The notes: generated from the sequence alone by a model not told the origin. DNA of 64,000 bases from Patescibacteria group bacterium (GCA_041662665.1 JBAZSC010000002.1:165234-229233); one strand, 5' to 3'; shown: positions 11,231-59,324, counted from the stretch's first letter. A program made the numbers and translations.

Positions 11231-11236
11231 TAGCTT

Positions 11237-12295: not shown

Positions 12296-12300
12296 AACAG

Positions 12301-12420: not shown

Positions 12421-12439
12421 AATATTTAATTCAAAATTT

Positions 12440-13016: not shown

Positions 13017-13046
13017 CAAAACCGAGCCTCAACACTCGGTTTTTTA
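13017..13046 (+). terminator. Rho-independent terminator after efp
   Basis: A hairpin AAACCGAG-CCTCAACA-CTCGGTTT is followed by a T-run. Confidence 0.6.
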
Positions 13047-13129
13047 ATATCCGTAATTTCCGAATATCCGAATATCTTAATTTCCGTCAGTACTTTATGG
13101 ACTTTAAAAACTTTATGAACTTTAGAAAC
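13041..13129. repeat. Composite tandem repeats: ATATCCGAAT family followed by AACTTTA(A/T)AA family (downstream of recA)
   Basis: atatccgtaatttccgaatatccgaatatcttaatttccgtc ... actttatggactttaaaaactttatgaactttagaaactt. ATATCCGAAT-family arrays also occur at 20911-20945, 25291-25330 and 44621-44650. Confidence 0.65.
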
Positions 13130-17982: not shown

Positions 17983-19023
17983 TTAACCTCCATAAAAACA
18001 TAAAGGATCAGGACCTTGCAACATATTGCCATTATAAGCAGAAAATCTTTGTGCTAAACATCCTCCTTTACATGAATCCAACAAAACGCATTTTCTACAT
18101 TTACCTTTTAATCTTTTATAACCATAACTTTGGAATCTTCTAAATATATCAACCATTGGATGTTTTAGCCAAAAATATTCCAAATTATTTTCCAAAATAT
18201 TACCAAATGCCGGATATTTCATTGCCGAACAATATGTCACATCGCCATTTGCTCTAATCAAAATCTTTTCTTGACCAATATTACAACTTCTAATTGGAAA
18301 ACTTTCATCATAACTATATCGTCTATCAATGTTATGTCCTAATATCAAATCAAAACGTTGAGGTATCAAATAAGAGAAAAATCTTTGCGCGACTCTAAAT
18401 TGTTCTTGATTCAAAACTAATTCTGGATGATTTGCGCAACTGCCTTGAACAACCAATCTCAATAAGTGCCAGTTCTTTACTCCCAGATCTCTCAACAAAT
18501 CATACATCAAACCCAATTCAAGATAATTCACTGCCATTACAGTAGTATGCACTTCAACTTTTAATCCTCTTGCAACAGCTAAGGCAATACTTGCCATCAA
18601 CAAATCAAATGATCCTTCTAGTCCTGTCACTTTTTCATGCGTTTCTTTCATCCCATGCAAACTAAAAACTATTCTGTCATCTTTATGAGAATAACGTCTC
18701 CAAAAATCAAAGAAAGCTTCTTTCAAAGAAAACATTTTTCCTTTTTCATTTTTATAAATAGCGCTCGTCTGCAATCTTACAGAAAAACCAAATCGCCATG
18801 CATAAAGCATTAAATCAATACAATCTTTTCGCATCAAAAGCTCGCCTCCGCTAATCGTAAAAATACTTGCCCCAAGCCATTTTGCTTGTCTCAAAATATC
18901 CATTATTTCTGCCTGCGATAATTCTCTTTCAAAAGGCAAACCAGCATTTGAAGAACAATGAAGGCAACTTAAAGCACATTGATTTGTGATCTCAATTGAA
19001 ATTTCTTTCAATAGCCTTGGCAT
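17983..19023 (-). CDS. Radical SAM enzyme with C-terminal SPASM domain
   Basis: The CALSCLHCSS (Cx3Cx2C) motif is present. A C-terminal Cys cluster (CNIGQ...YCSAMKY...CRKCVLLDSCKGGCLA) is typical of SPASM auxiliary Fe-S domains. A strong RBS (AAAGGAGGGAGA) precedes the gene. Confidence 0.8.
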   Translation of the reverse strand: MPRLLKEISIEITNQCALSCLHCSSNAGLPFERELSQAEIMDILRQAKWLGASIFTISGGELLMRKDCIDLMLYAWRFGFSVRLQTSAIYKNEKGKMFSLKEAFFDFWRRYSHKDDRIVFSLHGMKETHEKVTGLEGSFDLLMASIALAVARGLKVEVHTTVMAVNYLELGLMYDLLRDLGVKNWHLLRLVVQGSCANHPELVLNQEQFRVAQRFFSYLIPQRFDLILGHNIDRRYSYDESFPIRSCNIGQEKILIRANGDVTYCSAMKYPAFGNILENNLEYFWLKHPMVDIFRRFQSYGYKRLKGKCRKCVLLDSCKGGCLAQRFSAYNGNMLQGPDPLCFYGG

Positions 19024-19056
19024 TTCTCTTCTCCCTCCTTTGTCCCATCAACTTTG

Positions 19057-19082
19057 TCCACCGAAGCTTTAGCGCAGGTGGA
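19057..19082. repeat. Palindromic element variant TCCACC-GAAGCTTTAGCGCAG-GTGGA (intergenic, in the 5' region of the rSAM gene)
   Basis: Its arms and loop are homologous to those of the rpsF copies. Confidence 0.6.
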
Positions 19083-19162
19083 AGCGTAAACGAAGATGGA
19101 CTTGTTTTCAAAGAACATTTTCAATCAACAATATCATATTAATTTGATACTTACAATAAAAA

Positions 19163-19192
19163 ATAGAGGCACAAAATCTTGTGCCCCTAGAT
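19163..19192 (-). terminator. Intrinsic terminator hairpin, identical copy of the one at 20881..20910
   Basis: On the minus strand, a GGGGCACAA-GATT-TTGTGCC hairpin is followed by CTCTATTTTTT. Confidence 0.6.
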
Positions 19193-19237
19193 TAGAGATA
19201 GCATTCGAGAATCGTATTCGAGCTCGCATTAGAGAAA

Positions 19238-20794
19238 TCATTTCACCCCAATTGCAAAATACTGCGTCTTCGTTGGATATTTAGTGAAATACTTTACAAT
19301 GAATTTTCTGTTTTTCTTTATTACTTTAGCATCAGTAAATACTGTAGATATATTCTGCCAAGAACCACCTTTTTTCTTGTATTTCAAATAAAGATTTGAT
19401 GCTGTTGCTGATTTATTTTTCTTTAAAAATTTCTTTAATGCTTTCTTAGTATATTTGAATGTTACTTTAATTTTATATTTCTGTGATAACTTTTTTGCTT
19501 TGTATTTATATAGATTAGTCTTTAATTTCCAATTGCTTAAGAATGTCTTATTTGGATATTTGCTTAATTTATTCCATTGCATCCAATAAGCGCTGTTCTT
19601 TGTTAATTTTGTTGGAAGCTTGGTGAAATTGATAACTAGATTTTGGCCTGAAATTGTTTGTTGATTTAGAGCTGGCATCAACGTAACTTTGTCACCATTA
19701 ATCAAATTGTTCTCCTCTAAAAGCCTATCGTATTCTTTTTGCTCTTCAGCGCTTAAAGTGTATTTCCAGACCTTTCCGACATAACTTTCATCAGAATTAC
19801 TATCACCTCCAGCATAAATTGAACCATCTGAGACTTGAATCAAAGAATAAACATCAGACCCAGCCATTATTCCAGTAAAATCTGACCAAGAACCATTCGA
19901 ATATTTAGAAACTTTAGCATAAACACCATTACCACCTGCATAAATCGAACCATCTAAAGCCTGAGATAGAGAATAAACATGGGTCATATCCAGCGTACCA
20001 GTGATATCTGTCCAAGAATTATTTGAATATCTATAGACTTTAGCATAATTAGTAGAATAAAAACCACCTGAATAGCCACCAGCATAAATTGAACCATCTA
20101 TCGCCTGAAACAAAGATCGAACGTTAGACATATTTAATGTTCCAGTAACATCTGACCAAGAACCATTTGAATATTTAAAAACTTTACCATAATCATCACT
20201 ACCATCATAATAATGTCCTCCAGCATAAATTGAACTATCTGAAGCTTGAATCAAAGAAGTTACAACAGACATATTTGAAATTTCAGAGATACTGATCCAA
20301 GAACCATTTGAATATTTAAAAATTCTATCATCATAATTAAAACCATTATAGACATATCCACCAGCATAAATCGAACCATCTGAGGCTTGAAGTAAAGTAG
20401 TAACAAAAGACATATCCGATAATCCAGAAACATCAGTCCAAGAACCATTCGAATATTTATAGACTTTAGCAAGATAATCGCTAGCTAAAACATATCCGCC
20501 AACATAAATCGAACCGTCTGAGGCTTGAAGTAGAGAAGCTACATTAGACATATTTAATGTTCCAGTAATATCTGACCAAGAACCATTTGAATATTTAGAA
20601 ACTCTACCATAAAAATGGCTACCATCATCATAATTCCCACCGGCATAAATCGAACCATCTGAAGCATAAACCAAAGAATAAACTGTAGATATACTCAATG
20701 TCCCAGTAATATCTCCCCATTCAGCACTAGCAATTCCGCCTAATCCAAACAATAACCCCACGCAAAACAAACTTGTTAATAAAAACTTTCTCAT
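19238..20794 (-). CDS. Secreted beta-propeller repeat protein with the shared Lys-rich C-terminal module
   Basis: A signal peptide is followed by about eight repeats of roughly 45 aa (YSNGSW.D.TG...SLLQASDGSIYAGG). The C-terminal segment of about 150 aa is homologous to the C-termini of four other secreted proteins in this window. Confidence 0.7.
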   Translation of the reverse strand: MRKFLLTSLFCVGLLFGLGGIASAEWGDITGTLSISTVYSLVYASDGSIYAGGNYDDGSHFYGRVSKYSNGSWSDITGTLNMSNVASLLQASDGSIYVGGYVLASDYLAKVYKYSNGSWTDVSGLSDMSFVTTLLQASDGSIYAGGYVYNGFNYDDRIFKYSNGSWISISEISNMSVVTSLIQASDSSIYAGGHYYDGSDDYGKVFKYSNGSWSDVTGTLNMSNVRSLFQAIDGSIYAGGYSGGFYSTNYAKVYRYSNNSWTDITGTLDMTHVYSLSQALDGSIYAGGNGVYAKVSKYSNGSWSDFTGIMAGSDVYSLIQVSDGSIYAGGDSNSDESYVGKVWKYTLSAEEQKEYDRLLEENNLINGDKVTLMPALNQQTISGQNLVINFTKLPTKLTKNSAYWMQWNKLSKYPNKTFLSNWKLKTNLYKYKAKKLSQKYKIKVTFKYTKKALKKFLKKNKSATASNLYLKYKKKGGSWQNISTVFTDAKVIKKNRKFIVKYFTKYPTKTQYFAIGVK

Positions 20795-20880: not shown

Positions 20881-20910
20881 AATAGAGGCACAAAATCTTG
20901 TGCCCCTAAT
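20881..20910 (-). terminator. Intrinsic terminator downstream of rpoC
   Basis: This is the same 30-nt hairpin plus T-run as at 19163..19192. Confidence 0.6.
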
Positions 20911-20945
20911 ATCCGTAATTTCCTAATTTCTTGATATCCGAATAT

Positions 20946-23900
20946 TTAGACCTTCTTCACGTATCCAGTACCAGCTGGAATTAACTTGCCAAGAATTACA
21001 TTTTCTTTCAAACCTTTCAATTCATCAACCTTGCCAGTGATTGAAGCATCAATCAATACTCTTGCAGTTTCTTGGAAAGAAGCAGCAGATAGGAAACTAT
21101 CAGTTGATAATGAAGATTTTGTAATACCTAATAATAATTCATCAGCCTCTGGTAATTCTTTTCCTTCTTTTCTTAATTTATCGCGAACAGCCAAGAATTT
21201 TACTCTATTCATTACATCGCCAGCAATCAAATCACTCTTGCCAGTTTTTCTAACTCTTACCCAATTCAACATTTGTCTGATAATCAATTCAACATGTTTA
21301 TCATCTACATCCTGACCTTGGCTTGAATAAATATATTGTACTTCTTTCAAAATATATTTTTGAATTGCTTCTCTTCCACAAGACTTGAATAGATTTTGCA
21401 AATCTAATGCGCCTTCTGATAATTGTTGGCCCTTGCTTACCAAATCCTTATTCTTTACCCACAAGACAGCATTGCTAGGCAAAATATATTCTTTTTCAAC
21501 ATCGCCTTCTTTGACAATAATTAAATTCTGTCCATCAATTTTCACAAAACCAGAAGCTTTTGCTTTAATTTCTTTGCCTTTTTCTGTTTTGATCAAAACA
21601 TCGCCTTTATTAACATCTGTTGCATCTTTAACAACAAGTTTGTCATTTGTTCCAAATTGATATAAATCTTTGCTGACATTTGAAGCAACGATTCTCAAAA
21701 TTTTTCTGTCTTTTTCTTCTTCAATTGAAGCAATACCATCTAATTCTGCAAAAATCGCTGGTTTTTTAATTCCTCGAGCTTCAAATAATTCTTCAACTCT
21801 AGGCAAACCTTGAGTAATATCGCCTTCGGAAGCTACACCACCAGTATGAAAAGTTCTCATTGTCAACTGTGTTCCTGGCTCACCAATTGATTGAGCAGCA
21901 ATAATACCAACTGCTTGTCCAATTGCTACTTTTTCATTTCTACCTAAATCCCAACCATAACATTTTTGACAAATTCCTCTTTCCATTTTACAAGTTGTTA
22001 CTGAGAAAATTCTAACACCATCCAAATCCAAACTATCAATCAATTTTCCATAAATTTTTGTAACAATTTCTCCTTTTTTAATAACAACCTTACCAGTTTT
22101 ATCTTTAATGTCTTGAGCCAAAGTTCTACCTAAAATTCTATCACCAATAGTTGTATTCATTTCTGTACTATCTTTTTTGGTTATTTCAAGACCTTTTGTA
22201 TCACTGCATTCGGGAGCTTGGACAATGATATCTTGAGAAACATCAATCAATCTTCTTGTTAAATAACCAGCATTAGCAGTTCTCAAAGCTGTATCAGTCA
22301 AACCTTTACGAGCACCGTGAGTAGAAATGAAATATTCCAATACGCCTAAGCCTTCTTTAAAACTATTCTTAACTGGCAACTCAATAGTCTTTCCAGATGG
22401 AGCAGCCATCAAGCCTCTCATACCCATCATCTGAACAATTTGTGGCCATGAACCTCTCGCACCTGATTCAACCATTGCATAAACTGGACCAAATTCTTCA
22501 ACTGTATTTCTAGTTACTTCTGTAATCTTCTCTTTTACATTTGCCCAAGTTTCAATAACTTTGACATAACGTTCATGATCAGTTAGAAGACCAGCTTTGT
22601 ATTGTTGTCTGATTTCTTCAATTTTCTTTGTTGCATCGGTCATCATTCCTGCTTTTTCTTTTGGCAATTTCAAATCATCCATACCCCAAGAAAGTCCAGC
22701 CTTAGTCAAATATTCAAAACCAATTTCTTTAATTGCATCAACTAATAATACAGTTTCATCACCGCCATGCTTATGCAAACATTCGCCAATTAATTCTCTT
22801 AATACTTTTTTATCAAAAACATTATTTCTAAAACCAAAATCTGCTGGCAAAACTCGATTAAAGATAATTCTACCAACGCAAGTTTCTACTATTTCTTCAT
22901 TTATTCTAACTTTGATTTTTGCTCTAATATCAACTAAATCATTTTCATAAGCTAAGATTGCTTCTTCAGCATCTGAAAAGATTTTACCTTCTCCCTTCAT
23001 TCCAACTCGCATATTAGAAATATAATAACAACCCAAAACAATATCTTGAGAAGGAGTAGTAATTGGAACACCAGTCGCAGGCTTTAATAAATTTTTTGTT
23101 GAAGCCATAATTTCTTTTGCTTCTTTTTGCGCTAAAACTGTTAACGGTACATGGACAGCCATCTGATCACCATCAAAATCAGCATTAAAAGCAGAACATA
23201 CCATTGGATGAATCTGCAATGCTTTGCCTTCAATCAAAATTGGCTTGAAAGCTTGAATACCTAGTCTATGCAAAGTCGGAGCACGATTTAACAACACATA
23301 TTTATCAGCAATAATTTCTTCCAATGCATCCCAAACTTCTGATCTGCCTTCTTCAATTAATTTTCCTGCTGATCTAACATTATGAGCATATTCATTCTTA
23401 ATCAAACTATTAATAACAAATGGTTTAAATAATTCCAAAGCCATTGTTTTTGGAATACCACACTCGCCTAATTTTAAGTGAGGTCCAATAACAATTACTG
23501 AACGACCAGAATAATCAACGCGCTTACCTAACAAATTTTGTCTGAAACGTCCTTGCTTGCCTTTCAACATATCAGCCAAAGATTTTAATAATCTTTTCTG
23601 TCCAGTTGAAGCAGCAGTTACTTTTCCAGATCTTGCTGAATTATCCAATAATGCATCAACAGCTTCTTGCAACATTCTTTTTTCATTTCTACAAATAACT
23701 TCTGGCGCATTTAATTCAATCAATCTTTTTAAACGATTATTGCGATTTATAACTCTTCTATACAAATCATTCAAATCAGAAGCTGCATATCTGCCACCAT
23801 CCAATTGAACCATTGGACGTAGATCAGGAGGAATAACAGGAAGAACAGTTAAAATTGTATATTCTGGTCTGATTCCAACTTTAATTAAATTTTTAACTAA

Positions 23901-24770
23901 TTTTAATCTTCTTTTAATTTTCTTTTTAATTTGGGCTGGTGCGTTGATTACTTCTTTTTCTAAATCAACTGCCATTTTTTCCAAATTAATTTCTGCTAAT
24001 ACTTTTCTAACGGCTTCAGCGCCAATCGATGCTTTAAAAACATGTCCATATTTCATGGACAAATTTCTGTATTTTAATTCAGAAATAACACTTAATTTTT
24101 TAATGTCTTTAACTTCTTCTTTTTCAAAATTAAAAACTTTATTCAACTTTTGTTGTTCTTTTTCTTTATCGGAATACAAAACTTTTAATCTTTTTTCAGC
24201 ATCTGCTGAATTTCCTTTTTCAGCTTTTTGTTTAACTCTTAGTTGTTTTAATTCGGAAGCTAAATTTTTGTACTTATCATCAATTCCTCTTTTCTTAGAT
24301 TTAAATTCGTCTTCTAATTCATTCAAAGTTTCTGTCTTTGCTTTTTCATCAACTGAAGTTATTAAATAGCTGGCAAAATATACAACTTTTTCCAAACTTT
24401 TTGCTGACAAATCTAAAATCAATCCAACTTTTGATGGAACACCACGTAAAAACCAGATATGAGAAACAGGAGCTGCTAATTCAATATGTCCCATTCTTTC
24501 ACGTCTGACAATTGATCTCGTAACTTCAACACCGCATTTGTCGCAGATTATTCCTTTGTATCTAATTCTTTTATATTTTCCGCAATAACATTCCCAATCT
24601 TTTGTTGGACCAAAAATTCTTTCCGAAAAAAGTCCATCTTTTTCCGGACGTTGGGTACGATAATTGATTGTCTCTGGTTTTTTTACTTCTCCATAAGACC
24701 AATCTAAAATTTCGTCTGGAGAAGCCAGTTTCAATCTTATCGCATTAAAATCAGTTGTAATATTTGCCAT
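20946..24770 (-). CDS. rpoC: DNA-directed RNA polymerase subunit beta'
   Basis: The 1274-aa product has the zinc-binding motif CYCGKYKRIRYKGIICDKCGVEV, the catalytic motif NADFDGDQM and a trigger-loop region. Confidence 0.95.
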   Translation of the reverse strand: MANITTDFNAIRLKLASPDEILDWSYGEVKKPETINYRTQRPEKDGLFSERIFGPTKDWECYCGKYKRIRYKGIICDKCGVEVTRSIVRRERMGHIELAAPVSHIWFLRGVPSKVGLILDLSAKSLEKVVYFASYLITSVDEKAKTETLNELEDEFKSKKRGIDDKYKNLASELKQLRVKQKAEKGNSADAEKRLKVLYSDKEKEQQKLNKVFNFEKEEVKDIKKLSVISELKYRNLSMKYGHVFKASIGAEAVRKVLAEINLEKMAVDLEKEVINAPAQIKKKIKRRLKLVKNLIKVGIRPEYTILTVLPVIPPDLRPMVQLDGGRYAASDLNDLYRRVINRNNRLKRLIELNAPEVICRNEKRMLQEAVDALLDNSARSGKVTAASTGQKRLLKSLADMLKGKQGRFRQNLLGKRVDYSGRSVIVIGPHLKLGECGIPKTMALELFKPFVINSLIKNEYAHNVRSAGKLIEEGRSEVWDALEEIIADKYVLLNRAPTLHRLGIQAFKPILIEGKALQIHPMVCSAFNADFDGDQMAVHVPLTVLAQKEAKEIMASTKNLLKPATGVPITTPSQDIVLGCYYISNMRVGMKGEGKIFSDAEEAILAYENDLVDIRAKIKVRINEEIVETCVGRIIFNRVLPADFGFRNNVFDKKVLRELIGECLHKHGGDETVLLVDAIKEIGFEYLTKAGLSWGMDDLKLPKEKAGMMTDATKKIEEIRQQYKAGLLTDHERYVKVIETWANVKEKITEVTRNTVEEFGPVYAMVESGARGSWPQIVQMMGMRGLMAAPSGKTIELPVKNSFKEGLGVLEYFISTHGARKGLTDTALRTANAGYLTRRLIDVSQDIIVQAPECSDTKGLEITKKDSTEMNTTIGDRILGRTLAQDIKDKTGKVVIKKGEIVTKIYGKLIDSLDLDGVRIFSVTTCKMERGICQKCYGWDLGRNEKVAIGQAVGIIAAQSIGEPGTQLTMRTFHTGGVASEGDITQGLPRVEELFEARGIKKPAIFAELDGIASIEEEKDRKILRIVASNVSKDLYQFGTNDKLVVKDATDVNKGDVLIKTEKGKEIKAKASGFVKIDGQNLIIVKEGDVEKEYILPSNAVLWVKNKDLVSKGQQLSEGALDLQNLFKSCGREAIQKYILKEVQYIYSSQGQDVDDKHVELIIRQMLNWVRVRKTGKSDLIAGDVMNRVKFLAVRDKLRKEGKELPEADELLLGITKSSLSTDSFLSAASFQETARVLIDASITGKVDELKGLKENVILGKLIPAGTGYVKKV

Positions 24771-24814
24771 AATATTTAGTTAATTAACCTTTTTAAATTA
24801 ATTTTTGTCAATTG

Positions 24815-25174
24815 CTAAAAATCAGTCCCATTTACATCATTTTCATTATAATCAATTGTTATTTCTTCGCCAAAATAAATATTTCTAACAGCAATAGTAT
24901 CTTTAAATTGTCCTAGACTTTTTGTATTTGGATTTTCTGAATGATTTATAAACCTTGCATTATCAGTATCCAAATAAACATAATCTTCACCATTATCAAC
25001 AGCGTATGTGTCAAAAAATTCTTCTGCATTTTTCGGTATATCTTTTTTGTTTACTTTTATATCAATGACAGAATTAAAAACCCAAACAGATTGACCTTTT
25101 TTAATTTCTTGATCAGCAATCAAACCAATCCCTTTCCCATTTATTTCTTTTAACCTTGTCTTAACTACTAACAT
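24815..25174 (-). CDS. Minimal SET-domain protein (putative protein-lysine methyltransferase)
   Basis: The 119-aa product has GKGIGL (GxG), RFINHSENPN (NHSxxPN) and GEEITIDY (GEELxxDY) in canonical order. It lies between rpoB and rpoC on the same strand. Confidence 0.75.
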   Translation of the reverse strand: MLVVKTRLKEINGKGIGLIADQEIKKGQSVWVFNSVIDIKVNKKDIPKNAEEFFDTYAVDNGEDYVYLDTDNARFINHSENPNTKSLGQFKDTIAVRNIYFGEEITIDYNENDVNGTDF

Positions 25175-25330
25175 ATATTTTTACAGTTTAACTAGATTAA
25201 TTTAAAATTATTTCGCTAATCATAACCGCATATACTTTTATTATGTAATATCACAAAGCGAATAATCAATTAATTTCACATAACTCGTCAATATCTAATA
25301 TCCGAATATCCGTAATTTCCGAATATCCGT

Positions 25331-28300
25331 CTATTTACGTTCGTACTTTTTTTCTTCAGTTTCAAGAATATTTCCATTTTTATCCAAAATTTCAACATTC
25401 AAAGCTAAGCTTTTTAATTCTTTAACTAAAACGCTGAATGATTCTGGAACATTTGGCTGTCTGATTGGTTCACCCTTAATAATCGCTTCATAAGTTTTTG
25501 AACGTCCAATAACATCATCTGATTTTATTGTTAACAATTCCTGTAACACATGAGAAGCGCCATAAGCCTCAATTGCCCAAACTTCCATTTCACCAAATCT
25601 TTGTCCACCAAATTGTGCTTTACCGCCTAATGGCTGTTGAGTAACTAATGAGTACGGCCCGATTGATCTTTGATGGATCTTATCTTCAACTAAGTGATAA
25701 AGTTTCAAGATATACATCACACCAACTGTTGTTTTTTCCGTAAATGCATTACCTGTTCTACCATCATAAAGTTGAACTTTGCCATTTTCTGGCCAGTTTG
25801 CTCTTTTTAATTCAGATTTAATTGTTTCTTCTTTTACACCATCCAAAACTGGAGTTGCAACTTTATAGCCTAATAATTTTGCCGCCATGCCTAAGTGAAC
25901 TTCCAAAATCTGACCTTGATTCATACGAGAAGGCACGCCTAATGGATTCAAAATAATATCAACTGTTCTTCCATCTGGCAAATATGGCATATCTTCCTGT
26001 GGAACAATCTTTGAGATAACACCTTTATTACCATGACGTCCAGCTAATTTATCGCCAACTTGAATTTTTCGAAGTTGTGCGACAGAAACTTGAATCGTCT
26101 TGATAACGCCAGTTGGCAATTTATCGCCTTTTTCTCTAGAAAATATTTTAACATCAACAACCTTACCATGTTCGCCATGTTGCAAATATAATGAAGTGTC
26201 TTTTACATCTCTAGCTTTTTCACCAAAGATCGCTCTTAATAATCGCTCTTCTGCTGTTAATTCAGTTTCACCTTTTGGTGTAATTTTACCTACCAAAATA
26301 TCACCTGAAGTAACTTGAGCTCCGACTCTAACAATTCCTTCTTCATCCAAATCTTTTAGTTTTTCTTCACCAACATTTGGAATATCGCGAGTAACTAATT
26401 CTGAACCTAATTTTGTATCACGAACATCAATCGAAAAATCCTCAATATGAATTGAGCTATAAACATCTTCGCGAACTAGTCTATCAGAAATCAACATCGC
26501 GTCTTCAAAATTTCCACCTTGCCATGCCATGAATGCAACTACAACATTTTTTCCTAAAGCTAATTCGCCTTTATCAGTTGAAGATCCATCAGCAATAATC
26601 TGACCCTTTTTTACTTTCTCACCAACTGAAACGATTGGTCTTTGATCAATACAAGTTGAAGTATTTGATCTTAAGAAATTTAATAATTTATATTCTCTAA
26701 TATTTTTATTAGCTTCCAATACTTTTATTCTTTTTCCAGATACTTCAATGATCTCTCCATCTTTTTTACAAACAATAACTACACCTGAATCTTTAGCAGC
26801 TCTCTCTTCACAACCAGTACCTACAATTGGTGAATCAGGATTAATACATGGCACAGCCTGACGTTGCATGTTTGAACCCATCAAAGCACGATTAGCATCA
26901 TCATGTTCCAAAAATGGAATCAAAGCTGTAGTAATAGATACAATTTGTTTTGGAGAAACATCCATATATTCGATTCTGCCTGTTGCTTCCATTGATGGCT
27001 CGCCTGCAACTCTAACTTCTGCTCTTTTATCAACAAAATAGCCTTTTTCATCAATTAAAATTGTTGCTGGAGCTGTCACATGTTTTTCTTCCTCAATTGC
27101 ATCTAGATATTCAATTTCATCAGTAACTCTTGATCTAATTTGAACTACTTTCAAACCAGCATTTTTAATTTTATTGATATCTTTTTTATCAAGAACTTTG
27201 TCAGCTGGAATAATCACTCTTCTTTTTTCATCTAGGATTCCAGATTTATAAGAAATCTCGCCGATTGCCTTTTCTGCTCTTTCAATTGGAATTTCTCTTA
27301 AAATCTTTCTATAAGGAGTTTCAATAAAACCATATTCATTAATTCTTGCATATGAAGAAAGATGGCCTACCAAACCAATGTTTGGACCTTCAGGAGTCGA
27401 AATAGGACAAATTCTGCCATAGTGAGTTCTGTGTACATCACGTACATCAAAACCAGCTCTTTCACGAGACAAACCTCCAGGACCCATTGCTGATAATCTT
27501 CTCTTATGTTCTAACTCGGATAATGGATTTGTTTGATCCATAAATTGAGAAAGTTGAGAAGACATGAAAAATTCTCGAATTGAAGAAATAACTGGTCTAG
27601 CATTAATCAATTGAGCTGGAGTAGAAGTATTAATATCCAAAGTACTCATTCTATCTCTAATGATTCTTTCCATTCTCATCAAACCAACTCTCATTTTATT
27701 TTGGACCAATTCACCAATCGCTCTAACTCTTCTATTTCCTAAATGATCAATATCATCAGGATTGCCTTGATTAATATTTAATTTAATTAATTCTTTTATA
27801 ACATTAACAAGATCTTCTTTTCTTAAAACTCTATTTTGCTTGTTAATAATAATTTTTTCACCTAATCTTTTGTTCATTTTGAAACGTCCAACTTTGCCAA
27901 AATCATATCTTTCAAAATTAAAAAACATTGCTTCAATCAATGATCTTGCATTATCCGCAGTTGCTAAATCTCCAGGTCTAATTCTTTTATATACTTCAAT
28001 AAAACCTTCAGCTTGATTTTTTGCAATATCTTTTTCTAATGTATTTTTGATAAATTTTCGATCAGGCAAAGTATCAACATCCTTGAATTGAGCCAAAATT
28101 TCAGAATCTGTGGAAAACCCAAAAGCCCTTAACAATGACGTTACAGGTACTTTTCTTTTGCGATCGATTTTTGCATAAATAACACTTTTTGAGTCAGTTT
28201 CAATTTCTATCCAAGCGCCTCTGTTTGGAATAATTTTTGCGCCAAATAATTTTTCGCCTTTTGTTAATTCAGCAGTAAAAAATACGCCAGGAGATCTAAT

Positions 28301-28696
28301 CAATTGAGAAACAACTACTCTTTCAACACCATTGATAATAAATGTGCCTCGATCAGTCATCAATGGAAATTCGCCTAAATATACTTCTTGTTCTTTTATT
28401 TCACCAGTTTGTTTATTAACTAATTGAACTTTGCAACGAACTGAAGCTTCATAAGTTGCATTTCTTGATTTTGCTGCAACTTCATCAACTTTTGGTTCAT
28501 CAATTACATAATCAACAAAACTTAATTCTAGATTTTTTTCAGTAAAATCTTTGATTGGAGAAATTTCATCAAACAATTCTCTCAAACCTTCTTTAAAAAA
28601 CCAATCATAAGAATCAGTTTGAACTCTGATTAAATCAGGAAGTTCAATAACATCATGCAATTTAGTAAAAAATTTTCTTTTTTGCTTTTGAGGCAT
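25331..28696 (-). CDS. rpoB: DNA-directed RNA polymerase subunit beta
   Basis: Conserved beta-subunit regions are present throughout. The ORF-track start at 28741 uses TTG and adds 15 hydrophobic residues. The ATG at 28696 ([10 protein letters not shown]...) is the more plausible start. Confidence 0.95.
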
Positions 28697-28744
28697 ACTA
28701 TAAAAAATTAATATATAATAACAAATACTAATCATTTGCAATTA

Positions 28745-29023: not shown

Positions 29024-30253
29024 TTACATCAAAGCTGCAGTTAGAATATTTCTTAATTCCGTTAAACGACCCAGTTCTTCTTCATCTTTAGTCTTTCCAA
29101 TCTTCTTTTCTACCCCTTTTAATTCTTTTTTATATTTGCTTCTTACTCCTCTTTCTTTTTTGGATAATGTAAAAAAAGTTTTCAATTCTTTTCCTGTTCC
29201 CATCACTGAACCAGCAATTCCAGACAAACTAGTTTCTGCTAAATTTCTAGCACTTGCCAAAATTTTTGCCATATTAGCACTAGCTTTCTCCAATCCAGGC
29301 GTTTGTCTAAGCTGTTCAGCAGTATAACCCAATTCTCCAGCAATACTCCCAACATTATTAACAACCTTAACCAACCTGTTTTCAGCATCATGAGCTACCT
29401 GTTTTTCTTTCATAAATTGATCTCTTGACACATCATTAACTTTTTTTTCAAGTGATCCAGTATCTTCAGATGAGATTCTTTCATCTTCAACCATTTTAGC
29501 TAATTCCTCAAGTGTTGGTGGCTCTATATCATCATATTCTGCCTTCGGAACATTAGGTGCTGGCAATTTTGCCTCTTTTTTTGACACAGCTAAACCACCT
29601 TCAATCAATCCTTGTACGTCAACATACTCCTCTTCACCACGTATCTCTTTAGGTGTTGGTTCATCGATTTCAACCACACCTTCTCCTTCCTGCGAAGAAT
29701 CTGGCAATGTACGTTGTACATCAGCTCTGCGAGTAAATTCAGTTTCAGTAAAATTGCCGGTTTTTTCATCATATTCAGGCAGATCCGGTACTAAAACAAG
29801 CTCAGTCGGATCAAATTTTTCTAAGTCTGCTTCAGTTAATTCCATTTCATCTGTTTCTAAAGCAGGAGCTGCTTGAACTTTTTGTTCGCCATAAGCACCT
29901 TCCTTAACTGTTGGCACATCCTCAATATTTATTTCTTTTTGAGTCGGCGCTTCATAAATATCTTTCATTGCTTGATCAAGTTTATTGCTCCATTCAGCCC
30001 AGACTTTTTTTTCATCATCAGTTTCTGGCATTCTTGGCAAATCTTCTTTTTTAAATATTTCAACGCCTTGTAAACCAATTTGTTCAATTTGCGAATCCTC
30101 AACTTCTGGAATTACTTCTTCAGCTGTTACAGCTTCTTCAATTCCTGGTTTTATTTCTCTGCCTTTTTTGTCTATAGAAACTTTTTTAAATTCTGTTTCA
30201 CCAGCTGCTTTTCTTTGGACTTCTAACGCTTGCGCATTATCACCTTTTGCCAT
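29024..30253 (-). CDS. Acidic low-complexity protein of unknown function (paralog of 30739..31899)
   Basis: The 409-aa product is Glu/Asp-rich with no signal peptide. Its C-terminal block (GELGYTAEQL...GKELKTFFT) resembles that of 30739..31899 (ELGYGAVSAGENL...GKSLKSFFSG). Confidence 0.5.
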   Translation of the reverse strand: MAKGDNAQALEVQRKAAGETEFKKVSIDKKGREIKPGIEEAVTAEEVIPEVEDSQIEQIGLQGVEIFKKEDLPRMPETDDEKKVWAEWSNKLDQAMKDIYEAPTQKEINIEDVPTVKEGAYGEQKVQAAPALETDEMELTEADLEKFDPTELVLVPDLPEYDEKTGNFTETEFTRRADVQRTLPDSSQEGEGVVEIDEPTPKEIRGEEEYVDVQGLIEGGLAVSKKEAKLPAPNVPKAEYDDIEPPTLEELAKMVEDERISSEDTGSLEKKVNDVSRDQFMKEKQVAHDAENRLVKVVNNVGSIAGELGYTAEQLRQTPGLEKASANMAKILASARNLAETSLSGIAGSVMGTGKELKTFFTLSKKERGVRSKYKKELKGVEKKIGKTKDEEELGRLTELRNILTAALM

Positions 30254-30279
30254 ATTTTTAAAAAATTAATTTTTAATAA

Positions 30280-30669
30280 CTATTGGATTTGCTCTTTTAT
30301 TCTTTTTTTCTTGTCTTCTTCAACCAATTTTACTGCTTCTTGAAAAACATCATCTAGCCTTTTATCTAATTTCTCAATTCCTTTTTGATATTCGTCATTT
30401 GCATATTTCATCCTTTTCAACATTCTAAAATAAATCAAATCCAAAACTAATTTGTCTTGATGAATTTGAGTACCCAAACCTTCTTTAGTTTTTTCTTTGT
30501 CTTTAATTCCTTTTTGCACTTTTTTGATATGATTATCAATTGCTTTGATAATGCTATCTCGCACTTTTTTACTTAAACCTTCTGTTTCTATTTTTTTAAT
30601 CAAACTATTTTTCTCGCGAGTTGTTAAATCGGATTGCTTGATTAGTTCTATTGCTTTTTTTGTTTCCAT
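30280..30669 (-). CDS. Hypothetical coiled-coil protein
   Basis: The 129-aa product is Lys/Glu-rich and predicted helical. It lies between two paralogous acidic proteins on the same strand. Confidence 0.45.
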   Translation of the reverse strand: METKKAIELIKQSDLTTREKNSLIKKIETEGLSKKVRDSIIKAIDNHIKKVQKGIKDKEKTKEGLGTQIHQDKLVLDLIYFRMLKRMKYANDEYQKGIEKLDKRLDDVFQEAVKLVEEDKKKRIKEQIQ

Positions 30670-30738
30670 ATTTTTGTATTTAAAAGATTAAATAATTAAG
30701 CTTGTCCACCAGAGTCTCCCGCAGAAGACGCAGGTACA

Positions 30739-31899
30739 TTATTCACCAAATTTTGCTCTTAATTCTTTAAAACGAACTTCTTGCGCTTTTAATTTTTCAT
30801 ATTCTCTTCTTTCCATTTTTTCTTTTGCAGATCCTACTAATACTTTTGCTTGTTCCTTTTTAAATCTTTCCCATTCCGCTATTTTCCTTTTCGTTCTAGC
30901 AATTTCAATTGGAAAATCAGTTGCCATTTCTTTATATGCTTTAACAGCCTCTTCAGAAACCGTTCTTAATCCTGAATCCATTCTTTTCATTGCTATTTTT
31001 GGCAAATTTTCTCCAGCCGAAACAGCACCATATCCTAATTCAGTCATAGTTTTACCAAAAGAAGTTAAAGTATTTTTTACAGGACCGCTAAAAAAACTTT
31101 TTAATGATTTACCTGCCTTATCTAATCTATCTTTTGCAAATCTTGTTAAGCTCTCTACTCTTTGCCTGCCCAATTCAGTATCCCAAATTTGATCTTCTTC
31201 TGCTTTTTTTACTAAAGCTAATCTCTCTGTATCTCTAACAAGAGTATCGGTATTATATATAACAGTATCAACATCTTCGCCACTTGGATTAACCAATGCT
31301 AAATCCAAAGCTGTTTCAACTCTTTGCCAATCGCTATCAAATTGTGCGTCAAATTCAGGATCTAAAAATTGCTCATTATTTCCAGCATTTAAAATCTCTA
31401 AAACCTCAGCTGTAGCTACTTCTTGTCCAGTATCTTTTTTGAGCTCTCTGACCATTTGAGCTAAAACATCTTCTTCTGGAAGTCCTTCCTCGAGTGAAGA
31501 TTTTGGAGGCTCAACTTTTGGAAGCTCAATTGTCTGAGCGCTTTCGATTTGCTTATGTGCGGCAGCCCTTCTCAAAGAAGCTTTTTCTTCTTCTGTTGCT
31601 CCACCTTTTTCAGTTTGAGTAATTTTATGTTCTGCTTTTACACCAGTAGTTGTTATTGGTTGACCATTTTCATCAACTTCTTTAACATCTTTATCAGCTA
31701 CTTCAGTTCCTTGTGCTTCTGGCAACGTTGGTGCAGTTTCCTCTTTAATTGTTGGCGCACCAATCTCAGCAACTGTTGGCGCTTCTTCAATCACAACGCC
31801 CTTGCCACTTTTTCCTTTTTTTCTCGCAGATCTCGATTTTCCTTTATAAAAAGCTTCCTGTTCTTTTGGATTTGGCACATCAATACTTTTTCTTGCCAT
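30739..31899 (-). CDS. Acidic low-complexity protein of unknown function (paralog of 29024..30253)
   Basis: The 386-aa product has PT/E-rich repeats (APTVAEIGAPTIKEETAPTLPEAQ) and a C-terminal block shared with 29024..30253. Confidence 0.5.
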   Translation of the reverse strand: MARKSIDVPNPKEQEAFYKGKSRSARKKGKSGKGVVIEEAPTVAEIGAPTIKEETAPTLPEAQGTEVADKDVKEVDENGQPITTTGVKAEHKITQTEKGGATEEEKASLRRAAAHKQIESAQTIELPKVEPPKSSLEEGLPEEDVLAQMVRELKKDTGQEVATAEVLEILNAGNNEQFLDPEFDAQFDSDWQRVETALDLALVNPSGEDVDTVIYNTDTLVRDTERLALVKKAEEDQIWDTELGRQRVESLTRFAKDRLDKAGKSLKSFFSGPVKNTLTSFGKTMTELGYGAVSAGENLPKIAMKRMDSGLRTVSEEAVKAYKEMATDFPIEIARTKRKIAEWERFKKEQAKVLVGSAKEKMERREYEKLKAQEVRFKELRAKFGE

Positions 31900-38125: not shown

Positions 38126-38214
38126 AGATATAATACAAATATACGAATTTATACAAATGATACAAATATGCGAATTCGTATATTCGCAACATTTGCATTA
38201 TTTGTATATTCGTA

Positions 38215-55370: not shown

Positions 55371-58300
55371 TTATTCAAAAAAGAAATCTTGACTATCCGA
55401 TGTTTCAGAATTTGTTAAATTAGATAAAGCATTTTTCTCAGCAATCACGAATTTAATCTTTTTCAATGTTCTAAAATAGAAAGATGGAGCAAATGGTCTG
55501 TTCTTTGTTTTAATATCTAGCGGATTTGGAATTGGATTCTTTGGAGGTTTTACTAGATAATTTCTAATTTTAAATTTCAGAGTATGAGTTGTTTTGTTTT
55601 GATATATTCTGTATGGTCCTCGCCAGATGTTGTCTCTGTCTTTGATGAATAATCTTAAATTCTTTTCTTTAATATTTGTCTTGTTTAATTTTGTCTTGGA
55701 ATATCTAACTGAAACTCTGAAATTAATATGTTTATTAACATTTTTTTGATAAGCTTTTTTGACTGTGCCGATATTTGATAATAGTTTTAAATAACCAGGA
55801 TAGCTGTTCTTCTTAGTAAATCCATTTAGATGTTTCTTCTTGTTTCTGATTAATTTAATGTAGAGATCTTTGATTACTTTTTGTTTTGGAAGAAGATAGA
55901 AAAGAAGATCTGCATTATCTGTAACGCTTTGATAGGTTTGATTTAGAATTACGTTTTCTAAATTAAGTTTTTCGGTAAAAAGAATGGCTGAAATGATAAC
56001 ATAGTTTTCTGTTTTGATACTTTCTGTATGGCCTAAAATGTCAACTGAAAAGAATTTAAGTGTTGCTGTTTCAGAAATTGTAATTGGCGTTGTGTATTGT
56101 GTTGATAACGTAGTTGGATCTATACCATCAAGTGTATAATATGTTATTGCTGTTTCATCTGTTGTTAAAGTTACAGCTTGAGCGTTATCGTATGTTCCAC
56201 CAGCTGGAGTAGCAGTTGTTACTGGTGCTTCTGTATCAATGATAACAGAACCAGTTGCTGACCAATCAGATATATTGTCAGCTATATCTACTGCATTGAC
56301 TCTAAAATACCAAGTACCATCAATCAAAGAAATTGTATGAGTAAAAGAGTTTGCTATTGCAGTTGAGATATTCAAATCACAACCAATAAAGCTTGAATTA
56401 TCGCACCATTGTACATTGTAAGCTGGATCACCTAGTCCTGAAGTTGTATCTGTTGATGCTGTCCATGTCCATTCTGGCTTGTTATTATTAGTTGGTGAGG
56501 TTGTTATAGGATCACCTGGAATTGAAGGAGGTGTTGTGTCAATTTGAACTAGATAACTGTTGTAATTGTTAGATGGATCATTATCAAGATTAACAGCGAT
56601 CGTATGAATATACCAAACTCCATCTGAAGGAACAGTTGCAGTAAATATGCCATCTGCATCAAAAGTACCAGCAAGTACTTCAACTTGAGTTGGTGTTGAA
56701 TTTTGAGAAACTAGATAATGATAATTTGTTGTAGAAGATCCATTGGATGATAATGACATATCAACTAATGCATCTGAATACCAAGTAACATGGGATGGAT
56801 GAGATGATGATGTAAATGTTGGATCTGGTGGTGTAACATATTCATACGCTCCCATATCATAATAGTCTACTGCACCTGCTCCTGTATTTACTACATCTGG
56901 ATCATCATATCTTTGCTTGCCAGCATAGTCAGTGGCAATATCTGTGTCGTAACCAGCATCGATGGCTGGAGAATCAGATTGAAGATGAAAGTCCGATCCA
57001 AAAGTTACAAATTTTGGATCAGTTATAATACTGCCTGTTCCACCTTCATTAGATGAATTATAGTAATCATTATATGAAATACTTTGTGTTCCAGCAGTAC
57101 TCGACAACACATCCGTAATGTTATAAAAAATATCATCTTTAAGATTAAGCGTTCCACCGCTCTGATTGATAAAAATACTTCCTGCAGAAGCTCTCCAAAA
57201 AACACTGTTATAAATATTAGCTGTCCCGCCAGCGAGTGTTATAAATGTTGTAGGAGCAATATTCATCACCTTTGATGCTATATTCAATGTTCCGTTGGTC
57301 ACAGTAAACGTGTTTGATGCGCCCATTGTTGGAGTATCAACAAGAGTGAGAGTTCCACCAGGAGCGTTAAGAGTTAAATTTTTTCCCCAAGTATTACCAT
57401 TTGTAGTCAGAGTATAAGATGATCGCCCTTCGAAAGTATACAATTGTGTCGATGCCGAAAACGTCCAGCTTGCAACAGGAGCAAGGGTCAGCGATCCAAA
57501 TATACTTGTAGCAGTACTTGTTGTGAAAGTCGGATTATTCGTAATGCCAGATTCTCCATTTAAACCTAAAAAAGTGGTAGTCGATATACGAGGCATATCC
57601 TGTATCAAAGTCATTCCTGTTGAACCAAAAGATGCCGAATCAAAAATAGCTGTGTCTTGACAAAGAGGCACGCGGCCAGCACCACCAATACCTCCAGAAG
57701 ATAGATACCAATTACCATCAGTACTCCAATTATTGCTAGCCCCGCTTAACTTGTACCAATATTGAGGAGTAGATGTTGTAAATAAAATACTGGAATTACC
57801 ACCACAATCCCCGCTTCTACCCGAAATATTACTCAGATCGTTCATAGATGCTAATTCCCATGTAACGGCAGAATAAATAGTATTAGCAATAGCTGCATAT
57901 CCAGCAGCAGACGGATGTAAATGATCACCATTATCATAAATTGGAAGAAGTTTATCCGGATCTGATGGATCTTCTAGAGCAGTATAAGTTTCAGCAACTA
58001 TATCCACGTCTGTAGCGCTATTTTGAATCCAATCATTGATCTGATCAGTTTTAATCTGTGCTGCTTCATACCACTCTGAATGTCCTTTCCATGGTGTTAT
58101 TTTTGCGGCAATTACAGTGAGACCTGCAGTTTTTAACGCGGTATACATGCTTTGCAGATTAGATTCAGTGCTCGCCACACTGTATCCGCTGCGTATGTCA
58201 TTCACTCCACCTAATACAATCGCATAACGAACATTCTGCAAGCTTGTGATAGAAGAAATTCTAGCAAGCATCGCATCGGTCTTTTGCCCATCGACACCAA

Positions 58301-59324
58301 AATTATATACACCGTATCCATATTCATTTGAATTTAGCTCTGTCGTCAAAAATTGAGGATAGGAACCATTATTTGCAGGTGTAGGATAACCTCTTGTAAT
58401 ACTGTCCCCAATAGCACCAATTGACTTAGTCGGCAAAGAAACATCGCGAAAATCTGTATTTGAGATAGAAATAGAAATAGCATTTATAATTCGTCGAAGG
58501 TTGATAGTGTCTGAGGCAACCAACATCCGGTTTGTCGAACTATTTCCGTTAATGGTTAAACTGTGTGTAACTGTAATATCTCCAGCAAGTGTAAATGTGT
58601 TGGTTTTACTGTTTGTGCCAGTTCTAGTCAGATCATAAAATGAGATATTTCCTGTGAGAGTATGAGCCGTTCCACTAAATGAAACTGCATGTGCATTAGG
58701 ATCAAAGTATCCAGAATTCAAAGCAAAAAGAACAGCTAAACCGAAATCCACATTGCTTGCTAGTTGTAATGTCCCAGTACCGGACATAATAAGAGAAGTC
58801 TTTATTTGAACACCGTTTGTGTTTAATGTTGTGGTAGTCCCAGTTGCTGGCGCAAAACGAGTGTATCCGCCACCATCTCCATAGGTCATACCTGATACCA
58901 GCACTGTTGATCCATATGAAAAAAGTGATACTCCTCCTGCAATAAATAATGTCGGATTTCCAGTGGCCGGATTAGCCCATGTAACATTATTACAATAGCC
59001 TGTGGCATTAACATTAACACTGTACGAATTAGCTGATGAATTGGAATCAAAAAAACAATTATCACTAGAGGTTGGCAGATTGCCTGCATCAGGACTGCCA
59101 CCAGACGTAGCTGCCCAATGAGTTGCAGCATCGCTCCAATTTCCTGAACCACCTACCCAATATCTTTCCGCTGCACTCGCCACCGCACCTCCAAAAAAAC
59201 AAACTCCCAAAACAAAAAAAAGACTCAAAAGAATCTTGTATTTTGAAATACCAAAAAATTTTACCTTTCCATTAAGCCCCCCCCCTCGTACTTTTTTGTT
59301 TATTTTTGTATTAAAAAAATACAT
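55371..59324 (-). CDS. Large secreted SGNH/GDSL-hydrolase-domain surface protein with beta-helix and Ig-like domains, a CHB_HEX_C-like domain and the shared Lys-rich C-terminal module
   Basis: A signal peptide precedes the GDSL motif IGAIGDSITRGYPT and a later DHLHPS. The protein also has YYTLDGIDPT and the shared C-terminus. A G9 tract lies at codons 13-15. Confidence 0.75.
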   Translation of the reverse strand: MYFFNTKINKKVRGGGLNGKVKFFGISKYKILLSLFFVLGVCFFGGAVASAAERYWVGGSGNWSDAATHWAATSGGSPDAGNLPTSSDNCFFDSNSSANSYSVNVNATGYCNNVTWANPATGNPTLFIAGGVSLFSYGSTVLVSGMTYGDGGGYTRFAPATGTTTTLNTNGVQIKTSLIMSGTGTLQLASNVDFGLAVLFALNSGYFDPNAHAVSFSGTAHTLTGNISFYDLTRTGTNSKTNTFTLAGDITVTHSLTINGNSSTNRMLVASDTINLRRIINAISISISNTDFRDVSLPTKSIGAIGDSITRGYPTPANNGSYPQFLTTELNSNEYGYGVYNFGVDGQKTDAMLARISSITSLQNVRYAIVLGGVNDIRSGYSVASTESNLQSMYTALKTAGLTVIAAKITPWKGHSEWYEAAQIKTDQINDWIQNSATDVDIVAETYTALEDPSDPDKLLPIYDNGDHLHPSAAGYAAIANTIYSAVTWELASMNDLSNISGRSGDCGGNSSILFTTSTPQYWYKLSGASNNWSTDGNWYLSSGGIGGAGRVPLCQDTAIFDSASFGSTGMTLIQDMPRISTTTFLGLNGESGITNNPTFTTSTATSIFGSLTLAPVASWTFSASTQLYTFEGRSSYTLTTNGNTWGKNLTLNAPGGTLTLVDTPTMGASNTFTVTNGTLNIASKVMNIAPTTFITLAGGTANIYNSVFWRASAGSIFINQSGGTLNLKDDIFYNITDVLSSTAGTQSISYNDYYNSSNEGGTGSIITDPKFVTFGSDFHLQSDSPAIDAGYDTDIATDYAGKQRYDDPDVVNTGAGAVDYYDMGAYEYVTPPDPTFTSSSHPSHVTWYSDALVDMSLSSNGSSTTNYHYLVSQNSTPTQVEVLAGTFDADGIFTATVPSDGVWYIHTIAVNLDNDPSNNYNSYLVQIDTTPPSIPGDPITTSPTNNNKPEWTWTASTDTTSGLGDPAYNVQWCDNSSFIGCDLNISTAIANSFTHTISLIDGTWYFRVNAVDIADNISDWSATGSVIIDTEAPVTTATPAGGTYDNAQAVTLTTDETAITYYTLDGIDPTTLSTQYTTPITISETATLKFFSVDILGHTESIKTENYVIISAILFTEKLNLENVILNQTYQSVTDNADLLFYLLPKQKVIKDLYIKLIRNKKKHLNGFTKKNSYPGYLKLLSNIGTVKKAYQKNVNKHINFRVSVRYSKTKLNKTNIKEKNLRLFIKDRDNIWRGPYRIYQNKTTHTLKFKIRNYLVKPPKNPIPNPLDIKTKNRPFAPSFYFRTLKKIKFVIAEKNALSNLTNSETSDSQDFFFE

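Follow-up and report, generated by a model that had tools for sequence, protein, structure and literature searches.

A 64,000-nucleotide (nt) stretch of DNA from an uncultured Patescibacteria group bacterium (JBAZSC010000002.1, positions 165234-229233; hereafter the window) carries a gene for a stand-alone SET-domain methyltransferase between rpoB and rpoC, the genes for the beta and beta' subunits of RNA polymerase (RNAP). This arrangement raises two questions: what kind of protein the gene encodes, and whether its position points to a function connected with transcription. The gene (24815..25174, stop codon included) is an open reading frame (ORF) of 119 amino acids (aa) that starts with ATG and stops with TAG. 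An initial annotation made from the sequence of the window had placed it on the same strand as both neighbours, with gaps of 156 nt to rpoB and 44 nt to rpoC; these coordinates and gaps are exact, and all three genes lie on the minus strand. The same rpoB-SET-rpoC order, with an identical SET protein, was present in two further assemblies (L001 and L002), and the NCBI record of the identical protein, from a 258-kb contig in a metagenome-assembled genome of the Patescibacteria group, is named 'SET domain-containing protein-lysine N-methyltransferase'. We consider it probable that the gene is a functional, stand-alone, minimal S-adenosylmethionine (SAM)-dependent SET methyltransferase belonging to a large prokaryotic family of ~120-aa proteins, and that it is an accessory gene inserted in the rpoB-rpoC spacer of one lineage.

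The Pfam SET model (PF00856) matched residues 15-110 over its full length (model positions 1-105 of 105) with an expectation (E) value of 1.6e-11. The score of 45 bits, against a cut-off of 22.4 bits, over the full model places this match far past chance. No other Pfam family and no NCBIfam model matched the 119-aa protein, and the PADLOC (defence) and PHROG (phage) models gave zero matches. The SAM-binding GxG motif is present as GKGIG (residues 13-17); when 30 homologues were aligned, G15 was invariant and G17 was shared by at least 90%. RFINHSENPN (residues 74-83), the motif of the SAM contact and the pseudoknot loop, corresponds to ARFCNHSCSPN in Set2 and to RFMNHSCQPN in NSD2, with the Cys of the NHSCxPN motif replaced by Glu, Lys or Asp throughout the family alignment. 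GEEITIDY (residues 102-109) falls on the ELxFDY motif, and its Y109 aligns with the Tyr of Set2 GEEITFDYN, within the FDY/FNY motif of Set2 and NSD2. G15, N77, S79, E103, E104 and Y109 are invariant in all 30 aligned homologues, H78 is kept in at least 90%, and the C-terminal tail carries a nearly invariant Asp-x5-Phe (D113, F119). These motifs were likewise retained in a larger set of 72 full-length members (NHS in 70-71, RF.NHS in 70 and EE[IL]T..Y in 69), of which the commonest length is also 119 aa.

Comparison with solved structures gave the same assignment. Against the PDB sequences, the single protein matched the SET domains of Set2, NSD2 and MLL1, and the family profile matched those of MLL1, NSD2 and Set2 at E values of ~3e-10. 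An AlphaFold2 model built from the 30-homologue alignment had a mean predicted local distance difference test score (pLDDT) of 86.6 and a predicted template-modelling score (pTM) of 0.72. A Foldseek search of the PDB with this model returned 309 matches at E <= 1e-3, and all 50 of those listed were SET domains; the matches included MLL1, NSD2, SETD8 and vSET at E values of 1e-6 to 1e-7. The best size-matched hit among the 50 listed was vSET (3kma_A; E 1.2e-6, template-modelling (TM) score 0.70 normalised to vSET, 23% identity). The ORF is thus a genuine, intact, minimal SET-domain gene, and from its conserved residues and modelled fold its product is very probably an active SET-fold methyltransferase. 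In these respects the initial annotation was borne out: the GxG, RFINHSENPN and GEEITIDY motifs that it quoted are all present, its SET assignment holds in a hidden Markov model search, the catalytic tyrosine that it regarded as decisive is invariant, and the resemblance in size that it drew to vSET extends to the predicted fold.

We asked whether the ORF could instead be a decaying remnant or a spurious reading frame in an enlarged intergenic region. The ATG has no obvious Shine-Dalgarno sequence ahead of it, and the GC content of the gene is very low (27%). However, the ORF spans the whole SET model with all catalytic motifs intact, its length is the modal length of its homologues, and pairwise ratios of nonsynonymous to synonymous substitution (dN/dS) against six homologues were 0.07-0.19, indicating strong purifying selection. 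A pseudogene, one of the outcomes that the initial annotation had named as refuting it, or a spurious ORF was ruled out on these grounds and is hardly conceivable. Foreign composition was likewise not evident, as the GC content at third codon positions (0.14) is near that of rpoB and rpoC (0.17-0.19).

We then examined whether the position between rpoB and rpoC is conserved, a check in relatives that the initial annotation had recommended. Using one peptide pattern, homologues were collected from 59 species-representative genomes, and in none of the 59 genome loci did rpoB or rpoC lie within 8 kb of the SET gene. Eleven close homologues (51-82% identity, including a paralogue in the same genome) were each found in a different context. 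The closest, from Kerfeldbacteria (P0003, 82%), is in tandem with a second SET gene (35% identical) and upstream of a gene for a 1,135-aa protein that is followed by rpsT. P0002 (80%) is flanked by Fic and DUF7387 genes, with rplI following; P0006 (78%) lies ahead of a GNAT gene; P0004 (76%) lies ahead of HD, NUDIX, His_Phos and CYTH genes; P0007 (74%) starts 33 nt past rpsP; and P0018 (71%) lies between genes for a HAD hydrolase and a peroxiredoxin. P0020 (71%) is located 6 nt past the gene for methionyl-tRNA synthetase (MetRS), on a contig that also carries topoisomerase VI A/B and RIO1 kinase genes, which suggests that this contig is archaeal. The second copy in the same genome (P0027, 70%) is at a different locus, and the contexts of P0037 (Woesearchaeota, 69%) and P0070 (51%) differ again. 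No conserved gene neighbourhood of any kind was found for the family. Recent duplication within the genome was ruled out as the origin of the second copy, since the window copy and P0027 are about 71% identical and each is nearer to foreign homologues (82% and 77%, respectively).

The junction was also examined in relatives of the organism. Searching with the N-terminus of the window RpoC recovered 80 related Patescibacteria metagenomic loci, and both gene ends could be placed in 77 of these, with the rpoB C-termini matched using the window rpoB as a tblastn query. The rpoB-rpoC gap was 174 nt or less in 75 of the 77 junctions, and none of the 77 had a SET homologue in the spacer. Unrelated small genes were found there instead in two loci: a gene for a 203-aa YdjM-family membrane protein (PF04307, E 7e-19; 1704-2315 of L072) and a gene for a 123-aa 23S-rRNA-intervening-sequence (IVS) protein (PF05635, E 6e-17; 3054-3425 of L101). 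Counting the window, 3 of 78 junctions therefore hold a small gene, a different one each time, and the YdjM and IVS genes show that unrelated small genes are occasionally accommodated in the Patescibacteria rpoB-rpoC spacer. The position of the SET gene looks like a lineage-specific insertion and not like a sign of a link to RNAP; the simplest reading of the putative insertion event is that the spacer tolerates insertions and that a SET gene landed there in one lineage. A methyltransferase conserved in the rpoBC operon would point to regulation of transcription by lysine methylation, and the evidence says no. Retention of the gene between rpoB and rpoC in relatives was therefore not observed, and the further suggestion of the initial annotation, that the operon location indicates an RNAP-, nucleoid- or ribosome-associated target, is not supported by a location that is conserved neither in the relatives of the gene nor in those of the organism.

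The family to which the protein belongs is very large. A word-indexed search gave 74 clusters at 90% identity, mostly of 117-125 aa and mostly from records labelled as Patescibacteria or DPANN. When a profile was run exhaustively against 1.84 billion representatives of clusters at 50% identity, 5,855 proteins matched at E <= 1e-3, and 1,776 of them at E <= 1e-10. Nearly all of the best 150 of these 5,855 were stand-alone proteins of 115-140 aa that aligned end to end, and a minority were double-SET fusion proteins of 276-334 aa (P0078, P0080, P0085, P0094-P0096 and P0101). Minimal SET proteins are thus no rarity among prokaryotes. The initial annotation had described bacterial SET proteins as rare and mostly known from pathogens, a view not supported by a family whose clusters number in the thousands and come from environmental bacteria, from archaea and from viral contigs; published work agrees, reporting SET genes in free-living and environmental bacteria and in methanogens (PMC3980110). 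In the literature on SET domains together with Patescibacteria, the candidate phyla radiation (CPR) or DPANN, we found nothing specific.

Within the 59 genomes, members from Alphaproteobacteria, Bacteroidota, Thermodesulfobacteriota and Gemmatimonadota were 33-42% identical to the window protein, and members from Woesearchaeota and Nanoarchaeota were 58-69% identical. Viral relatives, from 76 IMG/VR contigs and one 636-kb phage, were at most 42% identical. The closest subfamily (58-82% identity) was almost exclusively composed of Patescibacteria and DPANN records. The DPANN records with 58-72% homologues (L004, L005, L007, L009 and the P0020 contig) were from Woesearchaeota and Nanoarchaeota and included a single-cell genome. 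Since identity does not separate the bacterial from the archaeal copies, transfer of the SET gene between the bacterial and archaeal domains is suggested by these comparisons, with mis-binning possible for some records. The archaeal status of the DPANN loci rests on record taxonomy and on the contig with topoisomerase VI and RIO1; the neighbouring genes in L005 and L007 were not diagnostic for archaeal identity. Beside the SET homologue of Nanoarchaeum in L005 lies a gene for an Lhr-type helicase (8391-12434), which harbours an intein containing a LAGLIDADG endonuclease domain. These searches define a very large, uncharacterised prokaryotic family of minimal SET enzymes of the size of vSET. 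Its subfamily in Patescibacteria and DPANN, nearly uniform in length and 60-80% identical across both groups, is a compact candidate for finding native prokaryotic substrates of lysine methylation.

Expression of the SET gene was considered from the sequence of its spacers. The rpoB-SET spacer (25175..25330, minus strand, 156 nt, 25% GC) contains a hairpin and weak promoter-like sites. A consensus scan found no site resembling an intrinsic terminator in either the rpoB-SET or the SET-rpoC gap. The first canonical terminator downstream of rpoB lies past rpoC, where a strong terminator-like hairpin with 11 pairs, of which 5 are G-C, and a TTTTTTT run behind it is located 38 nt past the rpoC stop (20883..20908, minus strand). 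Because the genes share a strand and neither gap holds a terminator-like site, co-transcription of the SET gene with rpoB and rpoC by read-through, as initially proposed, is plausible. Expression of the gene together with RNAP, at least partly through such read-through, is probable in this lineage. Directly past the rpoB stop, two tandem 17-nt repeats (TAATATCCGAATATCCG and TAATTTCCGAATATCCG; 25296..25329, minus strand) pair on the minus-strand RNA as a hairpin of 10 bp, two of them G.U, which has a loop of 7 nt and is not followed by a U-tract. The predicted fold of the spacer, taken as 161 nt, had an energy of -33.3 kcal/mol (z -2.75), and 2 of 200 shuffled sequences folded as well. Two promoter-like sites in the spacer (25291..25262 and 25269..25240) each had 9 of 12 matches. 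Such sites were not in excess over the region (42, compared with 37.5 +/- 5.5 in shuffles); as they are no commoner than in shuffled sequence, they provide no evidence either way for a promoter belonging to the SET gene itself. No known structured RNA was found in the spacers, the match to snoR28 (E 0.33) being noise.

The tandem repeats past rpoB coincide with one occurrence of an interspersed motif, TCCGAATATCCG (longer form ATATCCGTAATTTCCGAATATCCG), found at 13046-13078, 20904-20945, 25296-25329 and 44623-44634. These sites are intergenic, and most of them closely follow the 3' end of a gene. Allowing up to 2 mismatches, the motif matched 7 times in the window, compared with 1.97 +/- 1.31 in shuffles. 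It adjoins an intrinsic-terminator hairpin at about 13020 and at 20883, and stands past rpoB without one. It looks like a genome-specific gene-end element resembling repetitive extragenic palindromic (REP) sequences.

The structure and conservation of the SET fold suggest how the enzyme would work. The GxG and RFINHS motifs would bind SAM, and the C-terminal EEITIDY segment would thread through the loop of the NHS region to form the lysine channel, in which Tyr109 would be the catalytic residue, aligning the substrate amine for methyl transfer. The protein has no post-SET domain, and its short tail, with D113 and F119, may close the channel. As it also lacks a pre-SET domain, the active unit would probably be a homodimer like that of vSET, which is described as a side-by-side homodimer in a preprint that cites the vSET structure (bioRxiv 10.1101/264291). 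Two SET genes, 35% identical, are arranged in tandem in the Kerfeldbacteria locus L062 (7418-7807 and 8001-8372), and a dimeric working unit is likely by analogy with vSET and given these tandem genes and the double-SET fusions. Since Go1-SET of Methanosarcina mazei methylates the chromatin protein MC1-alpha, the default expectation for a substrate would be a lysine in some DNA- or RNA-binding protein that is small and basic. Read-through from rpoB, with no terminator until past rpoC, would give constitutive expression. Such expression would be a by-product of position, and is thus not evidence of a functional link with RNAP.

Short sequences flanking the gene recur at other SET loci. An AT-rich motif, AATTTTAAATTAAT on the coding strand (25196..25209, minus strand), lies 21 nt upstream of the SET start, and is also found upstream of the in-genome paralogue (L066) and of a homologue in locus L150. 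A second motif, AAAAATTAATTTAAAAA on the coding strand (24790..24806, minus strand), lies in the 44-nt spacer between SET and rpoC, 8 nt past the SET stop. This 17-mer recurs unchanged 3 nt past the stop of the L150 homologue and, among 234 fetched loci, the exact 17-mer was found only at the SET flanks of the window and L150. A palindromic core, AAATTAATTT, is present on both sides of the gene in the window, the paralogue and L150. In the window the ORF is bracketed by an inverted repeat (24791-24820 and 25178-25207; 30 nt, 73% complementary), one arm of which is formed by AAAAATTAATTTAAAAA. The score of this repeat was reached by 13 of 500 shuffled sequences, which is not significant after correction for multiple tests, and no long-range RNA stem enclosing the ORF was supported, the whole region folding no better than shuffles (z +0.38). 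In L150 (and also L151), arms of 30 nt that are 97% complementary (4970-4999 and 5364-5393; terminal repeat GATTGGRGAAATATTTTTAAATTAATTTTT) bracket the ORF at 5001-5360 exactly. The inverted-repeat score at L150 was 27.5, compared with 7.3 +/- 1.1 in shuffles, and the RNA was predicted to fold with a stem around the complete ORF (z -3.78). This repeat-bounded unit lies within flanks that look GC-richer by eye. Together, the shared flanks suggest that in part of the subfamily the SET gene moved with a few tens of bases of flanking DNA. An inverted-repeat cassette as a trait of the whole family was ruled out, as only 1 of 107 loci, that of L150, had z > 3.

Several points weigh against our interpretation of the gene as a functional accessory methyltransferase that is read through from rpoB. 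The 10-bp hairpin past the rpoB stop could attenuate read-through, and a promoter dedicated to the SET gene could lie among the AT-rich motifs that travel with it. In the RpoC N-terminus, the closest relatives sampled are at most 60% identical, which limits how well the insertion can be dated and how widely it can be seen to be shared. Activity and substrate are read from sequence for every member of the subfamily. A protein-lysine substrate is moreover not guaranteed, as the bacterial SET enzyme BurB, from Burkholderia, methylates a small molecule, converting methionine to S-methylmethionine (PMC7496086). If the window protein likewise acted on a small molecule, this would fit with the free amino acid substrate of BurB, with the lack of substrate-recognition domains in the window protein and with the presence of several homologues beside HAD, NUDIX, CYTH and GNAT small-molecule enzymes. 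However, its best sequence and structure matches are protein-lysine methyltransferases and the lysine-channel Tyr is conserved, no biosynthetic cluster lies nearby, and the neighbourhoods of the family show no consistent metabolic partner; we regard small-molecule methylation as very unlikely. A functional coupling to transcription, in which the enzyme methylates RNAP, a nucleoid protein or a factor associated with RNAP, and in which selection for its place in rpoBC ties its dosage to that of RNAP, would account for the shared strand, the short gaps and the absence of a canonical terminator until past rpoC. It is also consistent with the stability of the arrangement in three independent assemblies of the same organism, and with the location of several homologues within two genes of information-processing genes (rpsP, rplI, rpsT and MetRS). 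Against this, the position is unique to one lineage among the 59 + 11 SET loci and 77 related rpoBC junctions, the spacers of other lineages hold the unrelated YdjM and IVS-protein genes, and a second SET copy resides elsewhere in the genome. About 5 of 11 contexts had a translation or transcription gene within two genes, which is no clear excess over the one third or so that chance would give in small Patescibacteria genomes by a rough estimate. Such coupling is accordingly highly improbable.

Another possible role is that of an effector directed at the host cell, as Patescibacteria and DPANN are typically episymbionts and the closest subfamily is found almost only in these groups. In that case the enzyme would methylate host proteins, as do chlamydial NUE, Legionella RomA/LegAS4 and vSET; relatives also occur in viral contigs and in the 636-kb phage, and LegAS4 is a detectable homologue (E 7.5e-5). 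The protein, however, consists of the catalytic core alone and starts MLVVKT, with no signal peptide, secretion signal or targeting domain seen in it (no formal predictor was run), and no secretion genes adjoin the SET gene. The 33-42% identical members in the four bacterial groups named above, Alphaproteobacteria, Bacteroidota, Thermodesulfobacteriota and Gemmatimonadota, which we take to be free-living lineages, also argue against this role, and we consider it distinctly unlikely. The scattered positions of the gene, its multiple copies, its spread across Patescibacteria and DPANN and its arrival between rpoB and rpoC could be explained if it were the cargo of a small mobile cassette with inverted repeats at its ends. 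The exact bracketing of the L150 ORF by arms of 97% complementarity, the weaker bracket in the window, the AAATTAATTT core at three loci, the restriction of AAAAATTAATTTAAAAA to SET flanks and the different context of every homologue all favour such a cassette. However, a strong flanking inverted repeat was found in just the one family locus, the window repeat was not significant after correction, the whole region had an ordinary fold, and AT-rich palindromes easily arise in DNA of 25-30% GC. No direct repeat that could represent a target-site duplication was visible outside the L150 arms, and no transposase, integrase or other mobility gene was present among the neighbours looked at. A cassette of this kind is again distinctly unlikely as the general explanation. 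A broader version, which we put forward as a long shot, starts from the 64-72% identity between Patescibacteria-labelled and DPANN-labelled records. It would have a horizontally mobile SET unit, with AT-rich palindromic flanks and sometimes a 30-bp inverted repeat, moving between ultrasmall episymbiotic bacteria and archaea. The unit would insert in the spacers of highly expressed housekeeping operons (rpoB-rpoC, or past rpsP or MetRS) and use their transcription, and the protein modified by its product would be one that the symbionts share or one that they target.

The window has a GC content of ~31%. Among its ordinary bacterial chromosomal genes are those for FtsK, RodZ, a Mur ligase and a TsaD/TsaB-family (PF00814) protein. 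The rpoB gene (25331..28741, minus strand) has a translation typical of RpoB; its longest ORF begins with TTG at 28741, and the likelier true start is the ATG at 28699 (MPQKQKRK...). The rpoC gene (20946..24770, minus strand) was identified by its translation and encodes 1274 aa. Upstream of rpoB (29024-31899, minus strand) there is no rplJ or rplL; instead, three ORFs of 409, 129 and 386 aa are found, which are acidic- and lysine-rich, have a low-complexity or coiled-coil look and gave no Pfam match. In the region 17983-20794 (minus strand), the gene just 3' of rpoC encodes a protein of 518 aa whose N-terminus resembles a signal peptide and which has many '(K)YSNGSW(S/T)D' repeats, of the Reg_prop propeller type. 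A gene for a radical SAM/SPASM enzyme comes next, and the two may form a peptide-maturation pair. The region 56000-60000 has a GC content of 0.38, compared with about 0.30 elsewhere in the window, and coincides with a 1,317-aa ORF (55371..59324, minus strand). A long imperfect palindrome (TATACAAAT...GCGAATTCGTATATTCGC...ATTTGTATA) occupies the intergenic positions 38150-38210, between ORFs ending at 38125 and starting at 38491.

Returning to the favoured reading, a functional minimal SET methyltransferase inserted in the rpoB-rpoC spacer, we compared it with known SET systems. The closest in architecture is vSET (A612L of Paramecium bursaria chlorella virus 1, PDB 3kma), which is likewise a bare SET core of ~119 aa without pre- or post-SET domains. 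It shares the motif set of the window protein, whose predicted fold superposes on it, and a homodimer is plausible here too. However, identity in the structural alignment is only 23%, and by sequence MLL1, NSD2 and Set2 score best among the solved relatives; vSET was not among the 47 PDB matches of the single sequence, nor among the best 60 of the 75 matches of the profile. By these sequence matches, the window protein does not appear specifically closer to vSET than to SET domains of the MLL, NSD or Set2 type. The vSET gene is viral and its product methylates lysine 27 of host histone H3, whereas the SET gene of the window is chromosomal in a Patescibacteria genome and no such substrate is present in this bacterium.

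Secreted effectors of the NUE, RomA and LegAS4 type combine several domains, among them modules that target the host, carry secretion signals and act on eukaryotic histones. The catalytic domains of these effectors from Chlamydia (NUE) and Legionella (RomA/LegAS4) are homologous to the window protein, as indicated by the match of LegAS4 to the family profile. In contrast, the window protein is a bare domain from an organism without known infection of eukaryotes, and its 119 aa compare with 483 aa in the solved chain of LegAS4 (5czy_A of PDB 5czy).

Go1-SET of M. mazei is, like the window protein, a small chromosomal SET enzyme of a prokaryote that is not a pathogen, and its methylation of MC1-alpha was observed in vitro (reviewed in PMC3980110). 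By this comparison an endogenous DNA-binding substrate is plausible here, and evidence of transfer between bacteria and archaea is common to both. The window subfamily (MLVVKT...GKGIGLIA...DNARFINHS...GEEITIDY...DF, 117-125 aa) forms a distinct and very tightly conserved group centred on Patescibacteria and DPANN, which we set beside Go1-SET by description only. With regard to position, the nearest parallel is provided by the 23S rRNA IVS proteins. The SET gene of the window differs from these in encoding an enzyme, and in that neither a processing stem nor a mobility function has been shown for it. Both are small, dispensable genes in a short spacer of a core information-processing locus, and in L101 the IVS-protein gene occupies exactly the same rpoB-rpoC spacer as the SET gene does in the window.

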